IMG/VR virus record: IMGVR_UViG_3300045988_009401
Direction: 5' to 3' (one strand)
DNA from: a virus
DNA length: 5,949 bases
A model generated the notes under the pieces. It saw only the letters and a program-made list of their open reading frames with translations. It had not been told where the DNA came from and searched no databases. A program made the position numbers and the translations under genes. Shown here in pieces: positions 1 through 5,949 of this stretch (positions are counted from its first letter, which is position 1; every line of letters begins with the position of its first letter).

Positions 1-569
1 ATTTTTTTTGTAACATACCCTGCAACATATCTATATGTTTCAGGTGTTGCTTGTGCGATCTGAATTTGACCGTTTCCCCATAGCTTTTCTAGCCATTCAC
101 TTGTATAGTATCCGTTGTGATGGATTTTATATAGCTGTTTAAGATCTTCCGGTTTCCATCCGTACAGTATCATATGGTAGTGCGGCCTTGCTGTTTGCTC
201 TCCATATTCTCCTGCACAGAAGAATCTCAACTGCTTCTTGTATGCTTTTCTGAGCCTTTTCAAGAATTTTTGCACGTCTGTGTATAGTAATGTTTGTACA
301 CTTTCCGGCTTTTTTTCGCCCGGTTTCCATACATATTGTACTTTTCTTAATAACTCTCCTGTTTTGAGAATCATTCCCGGAACATGTTCATCGTCATATG
401 TCAGCGTAATAAACCAGACTTGATCTTTCGGCCATTGTCTCGCCTCTAGTTCAATTCTTGTTGCCCAGTCCTCCCTTTGTTGTATTCTACATCCGATGCA
501 TTGCCCGCAAGGTATTAACATAACTCTTGGGTTATACAACAAATCTTCATATTTCAGTTTTTTGCCCAT
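1..569 (-). CDS. VP4: Replication initiator protein (rolling-circle Rep, gokushovirus VP4), N-terminal 189 codons. The ORF continues across the circular junction into 5850..5493, giving about 308 aa in total.
   Basis: I translated the minus-strand frame whose codons sit at + positions 3-5, 6-8 and so on. It is open from the ATG at 569..567 down through position 3 and joins the 119-aa ORF 5852..5493 in frame. The translation carries the Microviridae Rep motifs: PCGQCIGCR (CxxCxxC), WFITLTYDDEH (motif 1), RPHYHMILYG (motif 2, HxH), and YRYVAGYVTKK (motif 3, the catalytic Tyr pair). The first in-frame ATG is at 569; the next in-frame stop upstream is at 833..831. Confidence 0.9.
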   Translation of the reverse strand, partial: MGKKLKYEDLLYNPRVMLIPCGQCIGCRIQQREDWATRIELEARQWPKDQVWFITLTYDDEHVPGMILKTGELLRKVQYVWKPGEKKPESVQTLLYTDVQKFLKRLRKAYKKQLRFFCAGEYGEQTARPHYHMILYGWKPEDLKQLYKIHHNGYYTSEWLEKLWGNGQIQIAQATPETYRYVAGYVTKK

Positions 570-608
570 TCTTTCAGAAAACCGGGCAAGTGAATATACT
601 TGCCCGGT
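570..608 (-). terminator. Hairpin plus U-tract between the VP2 stop and the VP4 start, a candidate intrinsic terminator or attenuator.
   Basis: The arms ccgggcaagt (582..591) and acttgcccgg (598..607) form a perfect 10-11-bp stem with a 6-nt loop. On the minus-strand RNA the stem is followed by UUUUCUGAAAGA and then the VP4 AUG at 569. Confidence 0.5.
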
Positions 609-664
609 AATTTCTTTGTCGTCTGGGCTGTATATCCGAATTAACGGCTTATAACAGCTCACTT

Positions 665-1558
665 TTATTTTCTCCTTCCTGCACCGCCACCGGCTTTGTT
701 CCTGTTGCCTGTGATGTTGTCGAGTCCGTGGCCGCTTCTTACGTTGTCCATGGCTTTGTTTACGTTTCCCCTTAATTTTTTGCCTTCTTTTCTTCCTGCT
801 CCTACGGCGTCGTTGATCGCGTTGCCTGTTTTACTGCCGATTTTGGACAGTGTTTCCTGCAATCCAAGCGGTGTCATTCCTGTACTGCTTAACATCTGAT
901 TCCAGCTTTGCGCGGCGTTGTACCAGTCACTTTGCGACCAGCTTTCACTTGAATAGGAGTTAGGCACGAAACCGGATGCTCTGCTTACTCCCAGCGCACT
1001 TGACGATGGTGCACCCATGCTTGCGCCTGAGATCGTTCCTGCGCTGCCTCCCGGCGTGCTTGCGCCGCCGTTCTGGAATGCTAATATAGGATTAAGCCCT
1101 GCTTTTTTCATGTCTTCTACGGCCCTCTGATATGCCGTGTTGGACATGTGTTCTTGCCATTCCCTATCTTTCATGGCTTCTGTGCTGTTAAAATTCATTG
1201 CTGCCGCGTTTTCGATGTGGTTATATATTCCCTGCATGATTGCGCCTAGGGTGTTATAACCCATCTGCTCCAGCATAGACCTTTGGTTAAATTGGCTCTG
1301 TCGTGCTCCTTCTGCGCCCTGGTATTGGTATGCACCTTTCAGATACTGCATTACTAGTTCGTCATTGGTTCCGGATTTGCTCATGCTTAGGCTTTGCCCG
1401 CCGCCCTGCTGTGTGCTTCCTCCCTGGCTCTGGCTTTGTCCTACCTGACCCCATGCACCGAATGCGCTTCCCAGTGATCCTATCGCATTTCCTACGGTTC
1501 CGATTGTTCCGGCCACTTTTCCGATTGTTCCCAGTGCTCCTAATAGTGATAGTGCCAT
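665..1558 (-). CDS. VP2: Minor capsid / DNA pilot-like protein (gokushovirus VP2-like), 297 aa, Gly- and Gln-rich.
   Basis: The ORF lies immediately downstream of VP1, which is the canonical gokushovirus VP1-VP2 order. It starts with ATG at 1558..1556. The composition is Gly/Ser/Gln-rich and low in complexity, as expected for a VP2/pilot protein. The stop is TAA at 667..665. Confidence 0.7.
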   Translation of the reverse strand: MALSLLGALGTIGKVAGTIGTVGNAIGSLGSAFGAWGQVGQSQSQGGSTQQGGGQSLSMSKSGTNDELVMQYLKGAYQYQGAEGARQSQFNQRSMLEQMGYNTLGAIMQGIYNHIENAAAMNFNSTEAMKDREWQEHMSNTAYQRAVEDMKKAGLNPILAFQNGGASTPGGSAGTISGASMGAPSSSALGVSRASGFVPNSYSSESWSQSDWYNAAQSWNQMLSSTGMTPLGLQETLSKIGSKTGNAINDAVGAGRKEGKKLRGNVNKAMDNVRSGHGLDNITGNRNKAGGGAGRRK

Positions 1559-1586
1559 TTAAAAAATAGCCGGGATTTCTCCCGGC
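1559..1586 (-). terminator. GC-rich hairpin with a GAAA tetraloop and a U6 tract between VP1 and VP2, a candidate attenuator or terminator.
   Basis: On the + strand, gccggga (1569..1575), tttc, tcccggc (1580..1586) form a 7-bp stem with 6 GC pairs. The minus-strand RNA reads GCCGGGA-GAAA-UCCCGGC followed by UAUUUUUUAA and then the VP2 AUG. The SD-like GAAAGGAGGA at 1588..1597 lies 5' of the hairpin. Confidence 0.55.
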
Positions 1587-1597
1587 ATCCTCCTTTC

Positions 1598-3262
1598 TTA
1601 CAGCTTATACAGTCCCGGCACGCTATAAAGCGGCATTCTGCGCGTGGTATTGTTTGCTACGCGGATTGCACCGAAAAATTGTGGTTCATTCTGTTCGATC
1701 AGTGTTCTTGCAATCTCTGCTTTTCCTTCTACCATCCATTCTTGCGACAGTGTAGGAACGGTTGCGTAGTTATCAGCGTAGTGCCAGAAGTCCAACGTAC
1801 CTTCTGCGTTGCTTCTCATAAGGCCGCTAACGCGGTTCGGTTTCATCCGGTAGTCTGCCCATGCTTCCTGATAGCCGAATGTCTCTTCGTCGGTCGCATC
1901 ACCTGTGAGCATGATCTCCTTCTTTTTTACCGGCTGTTCGCCTAGATTTGCAAACTGCGGCACGTAATAGTCTAGCCTGTCTTGTCTGCTCCAAAAGCGC
2001 TCAAGACCCTGCTGATAGCTGTGATTGTGTCTCACACATGCAACGCCAATTACGAAACCGTGCTCTTCAAAACTTTTTGTGAAAGAGCTTTCGTTGATAG
2101 GTGTAACGGACATTGCGCCTGTTTCACCGATAGGCGTGTCGTTGTTTGCCTGTTGGCCGCTGGTCTGCACGATCTGGTTGATGTTGACATGATATCTGCC
2201 TCCGCCTAGATACTCAGGCACCTGTACCGTTTTATCCGAAATGACAACGTCCCAAATTGCCTGTACCTGCTCACGATATCTGGAACCGCCCCGTGCCAGC
2301 GCCTCATAGTACTGTTGCACGCTGATGGCCTGTCGTAACTGGTTGACAGTTGTTTTTGCTCCTGTTGCTGTTTTGTCTCCTGTAAGATTTACGTACAGAT
2401 TGCCTTGATTTACTTGTGTTCCGCCTGATGTTGTTGCGCCTGTTACTGTTGCCGCACTGCCGCCGCCGCCGTCAATTGTACCTGTTGCAAATCCACTACC
2501 GTTCATGAAGATTGTGCCTTTTGGGTTCAGTCCGGCTAGATCTCTTAATTCTACCGGGTACAATCCACCTAACTGAATTGTCACCTCTGGTCCACGCTGA
2601 GGATAAGGTAAACAGGATGTGAAATAGTCATGAAACTTGTTCACCGGTAAAAGATTACCGCCTGTTACCGCTTCCTGCAGTTCTTTTTCCATCGTGTCTT
2701 TTTCGCCGGTGCTCATGGCGTATATCACATCTTCATCGTCACTTTTCAGGACTGCAGCGTTGCCTACGTTTTCGTCCCTGAAGAACTCGTTCCAGATTTT
2801 CACATACGCTCTGATAGGCAGTGCGTTGATGCTGAAAGGCTTTTTCACCTTCGTAGGTACGCCCATGTAGTCCAGAATGGACTTTTCATCCGGTGCCGGT
2901 TTTTCATTCGTCCCGTTGATTTTGATTTGCGGTACCGTGTAGTTTTTTGTTGGCATCCACGGCCTTTCTTCCACTTCGCCCATGAAATGCTTGAAATTGT
3001 CCCACAGGATCCGGTTAGGACAGTAGAAATAATAGAAATCGATAAAGCTATCGTCCATTACCGGATATTTGGGAGTCGTCATACGGATAATGGCCTGTGT
3101 GTCAACGCTGAACGTATCGCCCGGTAGGACTTCATCCACGTAAAATGGAATTAGTTTTCCTGCGTCAAATGTGGTCAGGATAATTTGGTCTCGATTGAAT
3201 CGCGTTCGGCTTGCTTTCATCTGTGGAATTTGATTAAAATGCCGCTCGTTATTCCTGTTCAT
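1598..3262 (-). CDS. VP1: Major capsid protein VP1 (Microviridae F-like, gokushovirus type), 554 aa.
   Basis: The N-terminal region reads RFNRDQIILTTFDAGKLIPFYVDEVLPGDTF, matching the conserved gokushovirus VP1 signature (TTFDAG.LIP...DEVLPGDTF). The length is typical. The start is ATG at 3262..3260, preceded by GGAAGGAGA eight nt upstream. The stop is TAA at 1600..1598. Confidence 0.95.
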   Translation of the reverse strand: MNRNNERHFNQIPQMKASRTRFNRDQIILTTFDAGKLIPFYVDEVLPGDTFSVDTQAIIRMTTPKYPVMDDSFIDFYYFYCPNRILWDNFKHFMGEVEERPWMPTKNYTVPQIKINGTNEKPAPDEKSILDYMGVPTKVKKPFSINALPIRAYVKIWNEFFRDENVGNAAVLKSDDEDVIYAMSTGEKDTMEKELQEAVTGGNLLPVNKFHDYFTSCLPYPQRGPEVTIQLGGLYPVELRDLAGLNPKGTIFMNGSGFATGTIDGGGGSAATVTGATTSGGTQVNQGNLYVNLTGDKTATGAKTTVNQLRQAISVQQYYEALARGGSRYREQVQAIWDVVISDKTVQVPEYLGGGRYHVNINQIVQTSGQQANNDTPIGETGAMSVTPINESSFTKSFEEHGFVIGVACVRHNHSYQQGLERFWSRQDRLDYYVPQFANLGEQPVKKKEIMLTGDATDEETFGYQEAWADYRMKPNRVSGLMRSNAEGTLDFWHYADNYATVPTLSQEWMVEGKAEIARTLIEQNEPQFFGAIRVANNTTRRMPLYSVPGLYKL

Positions 3263-3647
3263 TTTTCATGTCTCCTTCCTTCGCTGCTTCTTCCGGTGCT
3301 TTCTCCTGCATTTCCTGCAGTGCCAGTGCGTTTGCCTGCGCTGTTGCGATCATTCTGTGATACTCGTGGATGTTCTGCGGCCATTCCGTGATATCTACCT
3401 CTGTGCCGTCCAGCGCTCCCTGTGAAAGACTCTGCATAAACTGCGGGTCAAATGATGCTTTTCGGACAATGTTTTTAATGTCGCATTCATCTGCATAGCT
3501 CTCGATTTCGCCCTGGATGTCGATGCTTTCAGTCTCCTGAAGGTATTCCTCATTTTCTTTGTTTTTTGCCCATACGTATTGTTTACGCTGGGTTTCGCCT
3601 GATGCAGAAAAGAGGGGCGTGCGCCCCTCTTCATATCTCTTATTCAT
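3249..3647 (-). CDS. VP3-like protein (putative internal scaffolding protein), acidic, about 132 aa from the ATG at 3647. The track's longer form starts at TTG 3707.
   Basis: The ORF lies immediately upstream of VP1 and overlaps it by 14 nt. It has an acidic, Glu-rich C-terminus. The ATG at 3647..3645 has the SD GGGAGGG eight nt upstream and sits 2 nt after the stop of the preceding 79-aa gene. The 152-aa form in the ORF track begins with TTG (3707..3705) and would overlap the upstream gene by 68 nt. I do not recognise any motif in it. Confidence 0.5.
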   Translation of the reverse strand: MNKRYEEGRTPLFSASGETQRKQYVWAKNKENEEYLQETESIDIQGEIESYADECDIKNIVRKASFDPQFMQSLSQGALDGTEVDITEWPQNIHEYHRMIATAQANALALQEMQEKAPEEAAKEGDMKNEQE

Positions 3648-3879
3648 GCGGCTTGCCCTCCCATGCCTTTTCCTTGTCGTTCTGAAATTCGCCGGTTTCG
3701 TCTTCAAACTGTGCCAGCTTGTAACCCACGTAATCGGCTGGGGACTGCCCGATGAACGTGTTCTCGTCCTTCTGCATTACGTTGCACATCCGTGCGAATG
3801 TTTCATTGTTTTTGCTTTCACCTACCCATGCGTAGCACTTCGCTACTTTGTCGTAGATACCATAGTAATTGCTAATCAT
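3640..3879 (-). CDS. Hypothetical acidic protein, 79 aa.
   Basis: ATG at 3879..3877. Lys codons of the upstream gene form an AAAGGA SD 7 nt upstream. The stop is TAA at 3642..3640. The gene is tightly coupled to its neighbours. It has no transmembrane segment and no recognisable motif. Confidence 0.5.
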   Translation of the reverse strand: MISNYYGIYDKVAKCYAWVGESKNNETFARMCNVMQKDENTFIGQSPADYVGYKLAQFEDETGEFQNDKEKAWEGKPHE

Positions 3880-4356: not shown

Positions 4357-4746
4357 TTACACCCCCTTTCTGTATGTTTTGGTGCGCGTGTCGATGTGCA
4401 CCCATGTATTGTATACGATGATGCCGCATCCATTTGGGATGATTTTCTTCAGTTTGTTGGCAATTTCTTTTGCGGTCATGCCATCAACTCGAATGTCTGC
4501 GGCCATTCCCCGCATGTGATATGAGTATTTTGCACCGCCCACCGCTTTATTCCTTGTCGGTGTCCGGTATCCGCTGTTTATGTGTACCGGCTTTCCAACT
4601 TGGTTTCTGAGAATGTCCAGAATCGATACAAGGTAGTCATCTATGAAAACTATCTGAGAACCGTCTCTGCAAGCAAATTCCTTTACTTTGAAGTGCTTTC
4701 CAACGTTTTCGTTTGCGTCTGTGTCCATGATATAGCATTTAATCAT
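4357..4746 (-). CDS. Zinc metallopeptidase of the Peptidase_M15_3 / M15A family (VanY/YcbK-like peptidoglycan peptidase, a putative endolysin). About 129 aa from the ATG at 4746; the track form starts at TTG 4755.
   Basis: The translation contains the family signature SGYRTPTRNKAVGGAKYSYHMRGMAADI ... WVHIDTR. That is an SxHxxGxAxD zinc-binding block plus a C-terminal HxD/H ligand, preceded by FACRDG. The ATG at 4746..4744 follows AAAGGA. The track ORF starts 9 nt upstream at TTG 4755..4753. The stop is TAA at 4359..4357. Confidence 0.85.
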   Translation of the reverse strand: MIKCYIMDTDANENVGKHFKVKEFACRDGSQIVFIDDYLVSILDILRNQVGKPVHINSGYRTPTRNKAVGGAKYSYHMRGMAADIRVDGMTAKEIANKLKKIIPNGCGIIVYNTWVHIDTRTKTYRKGV

Positions 4747-4751
4747 TCTTG

Positions 4752-4970
4752 TCAATTCCTTTTTACTACAGCTACGTCTTCTAAGAATTTTTTTTCTACC
4801 TTGTACAGTCCATCTTCGTCTAGCTCATTTCCTAACTCGAATGCGTATTTTCTGCAGATGATTTTATCACTCTTCCTGTATAGCTTTTCGTAGTTGTACT
4901 TTTTTCCCATCATGTATCCGAAAAAATCGAGTTCTATATAATTTTGTTCGCGCACGTAGACTTTTTTCAT
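4752..4970 (-). CDS. Hypothetical protein, 72 aa, the first gene downstream of the promoter.
   Basis: ATG at 4970..4968 with GGAAGG SD 8 nt upstream, lying 33 nt downstream of the predicted -10. The stop is TGA at 4754..4752, 6 nt before the peptidase ATG. The protein is Lys/Tyr/Glu-rich with no transmembrane segment and no recognised motif. Confidence 0.5.
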   Translation of the reverse strand: MKKVYVREQNYIELDFFGYMMGKKYNYEKLYRKSDKIICRKYAFELGNELDEDGLYKVEKKFLEDVAVVKRN

Positions 4971-5002: not shown

Positions 5003-5031
5003 ATTATATCACATGTCAATACCTTTTTCAA
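5003..5031 (-). promoter_or_regulatory. Sigma70-type promoter on the minus strand that drives the gene cassette.
   Basis: On the minus strand the -35 is TTGAAA (5031..5026). A 17-nt spacer ending in TGA supplies the TGn of an extended -10. The -10 is a perfect TATAAT (5008..5003). The predicted start lies near 4996, and the first ATG is at 4970 behind a GGAAGG SD. Confidence 0.55.
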
Positions 5032-5196: not shown

Positions 5197-5352
5197 TTTC
5201 AACAGTTTCCACCGACTTTTCAACATTTCAACATTGTTAAACTTTATCACAACAGAGTGTTTCAACATTTCAACAAGTTTTCAACAAATCTTTCAACGTT
5301 TGTTTTTACCTTTTTCTAACGTTTTAACGTTCAAATTTATCTGTTTTCAACT
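5197..5352. repeat. Iteron-like array of about 9 TTTCAAC(A/G) octamers.
   Basis: TTTCAACA occurs at 5197, 5218 and 5226 (a tandem pair), at 5260 and 5268 (a tandem pair), and at 5279. TTTCAACG occurs at 5291, degenerate TTTTAACG and TTCAAA at 5322-5336, and TTTCAACT at 5345. The pattern is not CRISPR-like: the units are 8 bp and there are no spacers. Confidence 0.7.
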
Positions 5353-5397
5353 TTTCCACGTACTCTACTACTACGGCTACAACAAGTTATATAATAT

Positions 5398-5443
5398 TAC
5401 GCGTGCGCGTGTGCGCGCGTCTACGCGTGCGCGTGTGCGCGCG
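5398..5443. repeat. Tandem direct repeat, 2 x 21 nt, of perfectly alternating purine-pyrimidine CG/TG sequence (Z-DNA-prone) separated by tct.
   Basis: acgcgtgcgcgtgtgcgcgcg appears at 5399..5419 and again at 5423..5443. Each copy alternates Pu-Py strictly over 21-22 nt. The AT-rich ttatataatatt lies immediately 5' at 5387..5398. Confidence 0.8.
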
Positions 5444-5481
5444 AATAAAGCCCAGTACCTTACTTGATAGGTACTGGGCTT
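5443..5481 (-). terminator. 13-bp hairpin 11 nt after the VP4 stop. It is a candidate terminator and/or an origin hairpin.
   Basis: aagcccagtacct (5448..5460) and aggtactgggctt (5469..5481) form a perfect stem with an 8-nt loop, tacttgat. On the minus-strand RNA the stem is followed by UAUUCG, which gives a weak U-run, UUUAUU. The loop together with the adjacent base reads ACTTGATA on the + strand. Confidence 0.4.
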
Positions 5482-5492
5482 GGTGACACCGA

Positions 5493-5949
5493 TTAGAGTA
5501 TACCGCTTTTTTTCGTTTGTTTTTTGGTAACGCGTTCTTTTGCTTCTAATTGTGTTTTGTAATCTTGTCCTTCCAACTGCAGTCTTTTCTGCTCTATGGC
5601 TTTTCTCTGTCTGTTTTGCTTGATCCTCCACAGCCTTTCCGGGTTTTCTTTTTCCATCATCTTTTCATAGTATCGCGGTATTTGCGCCTTTTTGCCATTA
5701 GTGCATTGAATGTAGCCTTGTCTCCATATTTCTTCTTTGTGCTCTTGATAGTAAAGATCACCCAGTCCCGGCTTAAGTGACATACACGCGAACGGTTTTT
5801 GTTGACCTAGATCATAATATGCATTTGCTTTCTTTCCGTCAATTTCATACATTTTTTTTGTAACATACCCTGCAACATATCTATATGTTTCAGGTGTTGC
5901 TTGTGCGATCTGAATTTGACCGTTTCCCCATAGCTTTTCTAGCCATTCA
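5493..5949 (-). CDS. VP4: Replication initiator VP4, C-terminal part. Positions 5851..5949 duplicate 1..99, so this is the same gene as feature 1..569 read through the circular junction. The stop codon TAA is at 5495..5493.
   Basis: The 119-aa ORF 5493..5852 of the track extends in frame, with no stop, through the 99-bp terminal redundancy. It contains KPFACMSLKPGLG, typical of Microviridae Rep C-termini. The ATG at 5852 that the track used as a start is an internal Met. Confidence 0.88.
   Translation of the reverse strand, partial: EWLEKLWGNGQIQIAQATPETYRYVAGYVTKKMYEIDGKKANAYYDLGQQKPFACMSLKPGLGDLYYQEHKEEIWRQGYIQCTNGKKAQIPRYYEKMMEKENPERLWRIKQNRQRKAIEQKRLQLEGQDYKTQLEAKERVTKKQTKKSGIL
5851..5949. 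repeat. 99-bp terminal redundancy, an exact copy of 1..99. It marks the circular genome closure.
   Basis: I compared the two ends base by base: 5851..5949 is identical to 1..99. Confidence 0.97.

Follow-up and report, generated by a model that had tools for sequence, protein, structure and literature searches.

A conserved terminator-like hairpin between the Shine-Dalgarno sequence and the start codon of gokushovirus VP2: a candidate leaky terminator and ribosome binding site bridge

The junction between the major capsid gene VP1 and the pilot-protein gene VP2 was analyzed in IMG/VR record IMGVR_UViG_3300045988_009401, a stretch of 5,949 nucleotides (nt) that is referred to here as the window and to which all coordinates apply. 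An exact 99-nt redundancy at the window ends (1..99 = 5851..5949) indicates a circular gokushovirus genome of 5850 nt, and every gene lies on the minus strand. The nearest GenBank records are Microviridae/Gokushovirinae from faeces of pig, human and monkey with 83-86% DNA identity, and none of them annotates a regulatory feature at the VP1-VP2 junction. Read along the minus strand, the junction is TAA-GAAAGGAGGA-U-[GCCGGGA GAAA UCCCGGC]-UAUUUUUUAA-AUG (window 1600..1556), composed of the following features:

1598..3262, minus strand: VP1 major capsid gene, from the list of open reading frames (ORFs), with its stop TAA at 1600..1598 (Pfam Phage_F, E 7.7e-135)
1589..1597, minus strand: Shine-Dalgarno (SD) sequence GAAAGGAGG, directly 3′ of the VP1 stop, with 2 nt separating it from the stem
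1569..1586, minus strand: hairpin with 5′ arm GCCGGGA (1586..1580), loop GAAA (1579..1576) and 3′ arm UCCCGGC (1575..1569)
1559..1568, minus strand: U-rich tail UAUUUUUUAA (TATTTTTTAA as DNA), with 7 U in its first 8 nt
665..1558, minus strand: VP2 (pilot-protein) gene, from the ORF list, with its AUG at 1558..1556; GenBank relatives annotate VP2 here

This succession of an SD, a 7-base-pair (bp) GC stem with a GAAA loop and a U-rich tail ahead of the VP2 AUG had been outlined in an earlier reading of the same DNA (the original prediction) and is confirmed by the sequence, with two small corrections to its geometry. The VP1-VP2 intergenic gap is 39 nt and not 38, and the AUG, which lies 30 nt from the last G of GGAGG on the linear RNA, comes to 12 nt and not about 11 when the 18-nt hairpin is folded out, the tail at 1559..1568 doubling as the single-stranded spacer to the start codon. 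No SD for VP2 is found nearer than GAAAGGAGG, barring a GGGAG within the stem and loop, and an in-frame TAA immediately precedes the VP2 ATG. Elsewhere in the window, an SD-like motif is found 7-11 nt ahead of the start codon for most genes.

Of the checks proposed with the original prediction, RNA folding and terminator prediction both favor the junction hairpin. Predicted energies of the hairpin alone are -13.7 kcal/mol for RNA and -8.3 kcal/mol for DNA; the 57-nt context around it folds at -17.8 kcal/mol (z -3.1, none of 200 shuffles being as stable), and the hairpin persists in both the minimum free energy (MFE) and centroid structures of a 111-nt fold. In a scan for terminator-like sites the junction was the sole match on the gene strand (7 pairs, 6 of them GC, and 7 T in the next 8 nt). 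With 7 bp, and 8 in most relatives, the stem falls within what is usual for intrinsic terminators (GC-rich, about 5-14 bp, short loop), UAUUUUUU places 7 U in the 8 nt directly 3′ of it, and it begins 14 nt past the first base of the VP1 UAA, after the stop codon and with its structure conserved. A d'Aubenton-Carafa-type score was +15 for the element in the window. The window as a whole holds 14 terminator-like sites compared with 7.4 +/- 2.1 in shuffles, an excess that we do not use as evidence because most of these matches are on the non-coding strand or weak. An Rfam scan of the whole window (E up to 1) returned no match at 1556-1600; the only match, to Termite-leu at 545-612 on the minus strand (22.4 bits against a gathering threshold of 51, E 0.21), is taken as chance.

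Conservation was assessed in IMG/VR loci found by querying with three VP1 sequences, that of the window and those of two relatives further removed, together with GenBank records, giving 168 distinct VP1-VP2 junctions from related microvirus contigs, each read from the VP1 stop onward. By automatic classing, 143 of the 168 present the order stop, SD, hairpin, U-run and AUG, and visual inspection assigns this layout to five more (L128, L160, L087, L164 and L200), which the automatic classing missed on account of a GTG start, a bulge in the stem or an ATG within it. The original prediction would have been given up had related genomes lacked the hairpin; instead, at least 143 of 168 junctions keep the layout, and it is retained down to about 40-45% VP1 identity (L081, which is KT264798, and L082, which is KT264784). 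A pattern scan found the motif once in each of at least 120 contigs of viral origin, with lengths of 4-9 kb for the 80 on the list. A search for prophage relatives gave 50 pattern matches in genomes of bacteria and archaea, none of which was confirmed.

Within the close clade the first 38 nt of the junction are 96.8% identical pairwise, compared with 60% for third positions of the last 40 VP1 codons and 54-59% for all positions of the first 20 VP2 codons. Identity among close relatives reaches 98% in junction nt 1-14 (the SD region) and 99.5% in the TATTTT that follows the stem, and the bases closer to the AUG vary. All stem substitutions in this clade are paired, one pair having 13 G/C swaps and a second pair 2. 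Across 72 distinct SD-to-AUG modules, four of the eight stem pairs changed on both sides, 92% of stem cells are paired, a share that falls to 23-48% on sliding the 3′ partner, and the covariation score was reached by none of 500 shuffles. The variants include GCCGGGA/UCCCGGC, GCCCGGA/UCCGGGC, GGCCGGA/UCCGGCC, GCCCGCA/UGCGGGC and GCCUGGG/CCCAGGC. The loop varies in sequence and length (GAAA, GAGA, UUUU, AAA, CAAAA, GCAAAA, ACAAAA), so that the GNRA tetraloop named in the original prediction is incidental and was discarded as a functional feature. The arrangement is more than chance, and the junction element is genuine and under strong selection.

Two further observations were made at the junction and just behind it. 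After the invariant junction the VP2 N-termini belong to several unrelated types (MALSLLGA, MAFGIDDF, MSLLGT, MDPLSIMS, MSGLSGLL and others, in L001-L079; window 1450..1558), in loci whose VP1 C-termini are about 90% identical, and the conserved junction seems to mark a recombination boundary that separates the capsid and VP2 modules. In the window, GGAGGATG also opens a 9-codon ORF (MPGEIPAIF, 1588..1559, minus strand) that runs through the hairpin to the TAA before the VP2 ATG. Its ATG arises from a T after GGAGGA, which the window shares with a minority of relatives; the mini-ORF was rejected as a general mechanism because AAG takes the place of the ATG in most relatives, one T-variant (L007) is out of register, and no spacing is left between SD and ATG.

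Three natural layouts of the junction can be distinguished, and in all of them every junction has exactly one SD. In layout A, that of the window and of the majority of junctions, the SD precedes the hairpin. In the 143 layout A junctions, 0-4 nt separate the SD from the stem and 8-11 nt the stem from the AUG, so that a linear spacing of 27-34 nt becomes 8-13 nt when folded (mode 9; one junction 15 nt), and none of the 143 has an SD-like motif between stem and AUG. Where extra spacer has been added after the VP1 stop, as in L138, L157, L160, L179, L190, L200 and L225, the SD stays by the hairpin. The adjacency of SD and stem, the narrow distance from stem to AUG and the lack of any other SD point to a structure-dependent ribosome binding site (RBS).

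In layout B the SD stands 5-8 nt ahead of the AUG, behind the hairpin and a T-rich tail. A subclade with this layout (six loci of the KT264798 clade: L172, L184, L187, L189, L192 and L196) has a homologous hairpin and tail (GCCGGGUCAAAACCCGGC UAUUCUUGU) in the sequence UAAC(A/G)CAAAAACAAA GCCGGGU CAAA ACCCGGC UAUUCUUGUAAAGGAGA...AUG. In all six loci the SD is downstream, 5-7 nt from the AUG, and none is found upstream of the hairpin. Unrelated hairpins with a T-run also occur after VP1, ahead of a normal SD and AUG, in L209/L210, L223/L224 (AAGAGGGC...GCCCUCUU followed by U8), MG945566 and NC_040329. Layout C has no hairpin and an SD 6-7 nt from the AUG (L083-L086, L214, L215, L222 and L226), as in UAAGGGGGUGUUUAAAUG of MG945382. 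Five of the eight distant GenBank genomes discussed below belong here too.

Taken as it stands, the element is best described as a terminator-type hairpin inserted in the VP2 RBS. The retention of hairpin and tail where there is nothing to bridge, together with independent analogues after VP1, argues that they have a role of their own, and this translation-independent role would most simply be that of a leaky intrinsic terminator, by analogy with phiX174. In layout A junctions the SD lies more than about 20 nt from the start with none at normal distance, the intervening hairpin shortens the gap to 12 nt in the window and 8-13 nt in relatives, and the arrangement has been kept through evolution by compensatory change, all of which would be expected of a split RBS. 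The original prediction had offered terminator and structure-dependent RBS as alternatives; each fits the natural variants, and they are probably not alternatives. Our preferred reading, to which we assign a probability of roughly 0.5, is that the hairpin acts both as a leaky terminator after VP1 and as the bridge of a split RBS for VP2. The sequences establish the structure, its conservation and covariation, the constant U-run, the place of the SD and the limits on spacing; partial termination, and a dependence of VP2 initiation on folding of the stem, are what we infer from them.

Further parts of the window, outside the junction, are as follows:

5003..5031, minus strand: best promoter-like site, TTGAAA, 17 nt, TG-TATAAT (11/12), from a consensus scan only
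4357..4755, minus strand: M15 peptidase gene (Pfam)
3640..3879, minus strand: gene for an ORF5-type protein (Pfam)
3249..3647, minus strand: VP3 gene, for a Chlamydia-phage-type scaffold protein (Pfam)
662 down to 1, then 5850 to 5493, minus strand: VP4 replication protein gene, stop at 5495..5493 (REP_ORF2-G2P domain)

The promoter-like site, a consensus match only, is upstream of the first gene of the long operon, and the same scan found no strong promoter-like site between the junction hairpin and VP2/VP4, for which reason any terminator at the junction must be leaky. Transcription would start at the promoter-like site (5031..5003) and proceed through the small ORFs, the peptidase, the ORF5-like gene, VP3 and VP1. 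A fraction of polymerases would stop in the U-run, some 10 nt short of the VP2 AUG, leaving a VP1 mRNA with a protective 3′ hairpin. Fewer transcripts would then carry VP2 and VP4, both relying on read-through, and in the read-through RNA the folded hairpin would set GGAGG about 9-12 single-stranded nt from the VP2 AUG. More tentatively, and with rather less confidence than in the dual role itself, we speculate that one stem, indispensable as the bridge for translating VP2, sets the VP1:VP2 ratio in transcription as well as in translation and constitutes a compact, portable module, born by insertion of a terminator into an RBS. The three layouts, as natural intermediates, are all still extant.

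Several observations weigh against the dual role. The hairpin after VP1 is absent from five of eight distant GenBank gokushoviruses that were sampled blind to the feature, so the family can do without attenuation after VP1. With a stem of only 7-8 bp, termination may be negligible, and in many relatives the U-run has only 4-5 U and is interrupted (UAUUUU). In the MFE fold GGAGGAU is joined to AUUUUUU by G.U pairs, in which case the SD would be masked and not presented, and the spacing after folding, with a mode of 9 and values up to 13 to which the helix end adds its width, exceeds the 6-7 nt of the hairpin-less relatives. Since A/U-rich spacers are found in those relatives too, the T-richness of the tail may partly serve translation. 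A hairpin and U-run just before VP3 and VP1, at 3610..3631, is moreover hard to reconcile with a purely expression-lowering role.

One rival explanation is that the hairpin is a translation element only, presenting the SD or tuning VP2 initiation, with the polymerase nearly always reading through and the tail serving as an unstructured A/U-rich spacer that favors 30S binding. The short and interrupted U-run and the T/A-rich spacers of hairpin-less relatives (e.g., TGTTTAA, TTTTGTT) are consistent with this, as are the SD that adjoins the stem, the narrow stem-to-AUG distance and the lack of another SD, and T4 genes 25 and 38 offer a precedent. It does not explain why the six layout B loci of the KT264798 clade retain hairpin and tail with nothing to bridge, why unrelated lineages carry a hairpin and T6-8 at the junction ahead of the SD, or why TATTTT is nearly invariant while the AUG-proximal bases vary. 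We regard it as unlikely, and as the best placed of the rival explanations.

Somewhat less likely again is that the hairpin serves only as a terminator or 3′-end stabilizer, VP2 being translated by re-initiation 40 nt downstream or by SD-independent binding to the A/U leader, and the SD being conserved for some other reason, such as holding terminating ribosomes. The canonical terminator anatomy of stem and U-run, the purely A/U leader before the AUG and the overlap of the SD with the VP1 stop in most relatives (UAAGAAAGGAGG) would all suit it. The natural variants speak otherwise: in the seven loci where stop codon and hairpin are separated the SD follows the hairpin and not the stop codon, a new SD is present downstream where the upstream one has been lost, always leaving exactly one, and the stem-to-AUG distance of 8-11 nt is held only with the SD upstream.

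The structure might alternatively act in single-stranded DNA (ssDNA) and not in RNA, as a signal for complementary-strand priming, packaging or genome folding. Nearly all stem cells are Watson-Crick, so the junction stem by itself cannot tell RNA from DNA, and the hairpin is also stable as DNA, as given above. It further shares its position after the capsid gene of an ssDNA phage with the complementary-strand origins of G4 and phiX174. Those F-G origins are larger, multi-hairpin, sequence-specific DNA signals, unlike the single 18-20 nt hairpin with a free loop described here, which is tied to an SD, a U-run and an AUG and lacks the size, the multiple hairpins and the sequence specificity of such an origin. 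An ssDNA signal would need neither a U/T-run nor a fixed place relative to SD and AUG, and in the sister hairpin within VP4 there are 59 G.T cells and 9 A.C cells, as sense-strand RNA predicts. We consider this improbable. A role as operator for a viral or host RNA-binding protein that represses or activates VP2 translation, for which the coat protein on the MS2 replicase hairpin is the model, is the least credible. In its favor, a small hairpin beside an RBS is the usual operator form; against it, only the GC-rich helix is conserved here, with a loop that varies in sequence and length and stem pairs that swap.

The reading of the stem as terminator and bridge together finds partial counterparts in two known systems. 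In T4 an intervening hairpin cuts the SD-AUG spacing from 27 to 11 nt for gene 25 and from 22 to 5 nt for gene 38, hairpin-weakening mutations lower initiation, and the arrangement is clade-limited (PMC3014915). The junction resembles these cases in having an SD that is too far on the linear RNA (27-34 nt) and is brought near by a hairpin (8-13 nt), in a layout conserved within a clade and absent from distant relatives with an ordinary RBS. It differs in that the hairpin has full terminator anatomy and comes directly after the stop of a highly expressed gene, and the T4 elements are not described as terminators in that paper. The virus family also differs, being the ssDNA Microviridae, and the split RBS is here a prediction.

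In phiX174, Rho-independent terminators occupy the J-F, F-G, G-H and H-A gaps, and TJ, TF and TG block only 20-40% of transcription (bioRxiv 10.1101/2020.03.05.979765). As with TJ, TF, TG and TH, the junction element belongs to a member of the same family, places a hairpin and U-run after the major capsid gene (F there, VP1 here) and stands inside a long multi-gene unit whose downstream genes need expression. Unlike in phiX174, where the terminators lie in intergenic regions and none is described in that paper between an SD and its start, the SD here is 5′ of the terminator hairpin, and two more elements of hairpin and U-run occur inside coding sequence, in VP3 and VP4. The two sets share no sequence homology, and termination at the junction is a prediction from the nucleotide sequence. 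The junction element would thus unite a T4-type split RBS and a phiX174-type terminator in one stem. Our literature search found no description of a combined terminator/split-RBS stem, a search for terminators between SD and start returning general papers only, and no paper on gokushovirus terminators, hairpins, origins or VP1/VP2 intergenic stem-loops.

Three further hairpins of the window are conserved:

3610..3631, minus strand: second conserved hairpin, AAGAGGGGC GCAC GCCCCUCUU then UUCU, in VP3 codons 6-13
581..608, minus strand: third conserved hairpin, ACCGGGCAAGU AUAUUC ACUUGCCCGGU then UUUCUG, in VP4 codons about 19-27
5448..5481, minus strand: post-VP4 hairpin with a 13-bp stem and loop AUCAAGUA, after the VP4 stop (5495..5493)

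The first of these lies 9 nt past the ORF5-like stop codon. Both sides of its stem have changed together, GAAGAGGGGC/GCCCCTCTTT against GAAGAAGGGC/GCCCTTCTTT (G-C to A-U), which replaces Leu by Phe, and the Phe codon that follows it is TTT in every relative listed. It looks terminator-like, yet is upstream of the most abundant proteins, VP3 and VP1. The original prediction had missed this hairpin, and the simple VP1 > VP2 > VP4 gradient that it proposed does not accommodate it.

For VP4, the start is the GTG at 662..660 (minus strand), two bases past the VP2 stop and behind AGGAG. Of 80 relatives, 69 retain the corresponding N-terminus, (M/V)SCYKPLIRIYSP..EISGQVYSLARFS or (M/V)SCYKPLIR..., starting at ATG or GTG, the GenBank annotation of VP4 in KT264798 begins at the homologous Met, and the window ATG at 569 (VP4 Met30) is replaced by Val, Ile, Leu or others in most relatives. 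The hairpin at 581..608 is consequently inside VP4, and not, as had been proposed for 570..608, ahead of the gene and ending 12 nt before its AUG. Its compensatory changes alter the protein (GQVYSLAR to GRVYSLSR; Q/A to R/S), and a hairpin at this position recurs in other gokushovirus clades with different stems, usually followed by UUUU. The loop ATATT resembles the nick context of phiX174; a plus-strand origin here is unsupported, the loop sequence varying freely among relatives. A hairpin and U-run do follow the ORF5-like gene, VP1 and VP2, two of these elements being inside VP3 and VP4, and the series does not correspond to the proposed attenuator behind each of VP1, VP2 and VP4.

The hairpin after VP4 had been counted as a similar attenuator (5443..5481), an assignment that its features do not favor. 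Its stem of 12-13 bp covaries, its 8-nt loop AUCAAGUA is invariant in 67 distinct relatives, no U-run is conserved, the tail being not U-rich in most relatives, and the terminator score is -19 by the same formula as above. One or two GUGUCA repeats precede it (window 5482..5492). On the plus strand of the window, antisense to the genes, the loop reads TTACTTGATAGG and matches 8 of 10 positions of CAACTTGATA, the phiX174 gene A cleavage decamer. This hairpin looks like a sequence-specific recognition site, possibly a replication origin, and not an attenuator. Directly after it, at 5398..5443, is a 46-nt alternating purine-pyrimidine (Z-DNA-prone) tract with two exact 22-nt copies of TACGCGTGCGCGTGTGCGCGCG, 24 nt apart; a comparable tract is found in L003, L005, L007, L018, L023, L024, L071 and L075, with unrelated sequence elsewhere. 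Many iteron-like copies of TTTCAAC(A) and TTTCCAC occur at 5197..5371 (plus strand), in the 400-nt non-coding region from VP4 to the first gene.

Gokushoviruses are among the commonest phages of animal guts, and to our knowledge almost nothing has been established about how they control gene dosage. The VP1-VP2 junction is a clear non-coding regulatory signal in these genomes, far better conserved than neighboring synonymous sites. Annotators should also be aware that a VP2 start codon may have no SD close by, and that the VP4 start lies 5′ of its first ATG. If the dual role is true, a very small genome would nest a transcription attenuator within a ribosome binding site, and the relatives with the SD before the hairpin, with the SD after it and with no hairpin at all would provide a natural test bed for how structure rescues a long SD-AUG spacing.

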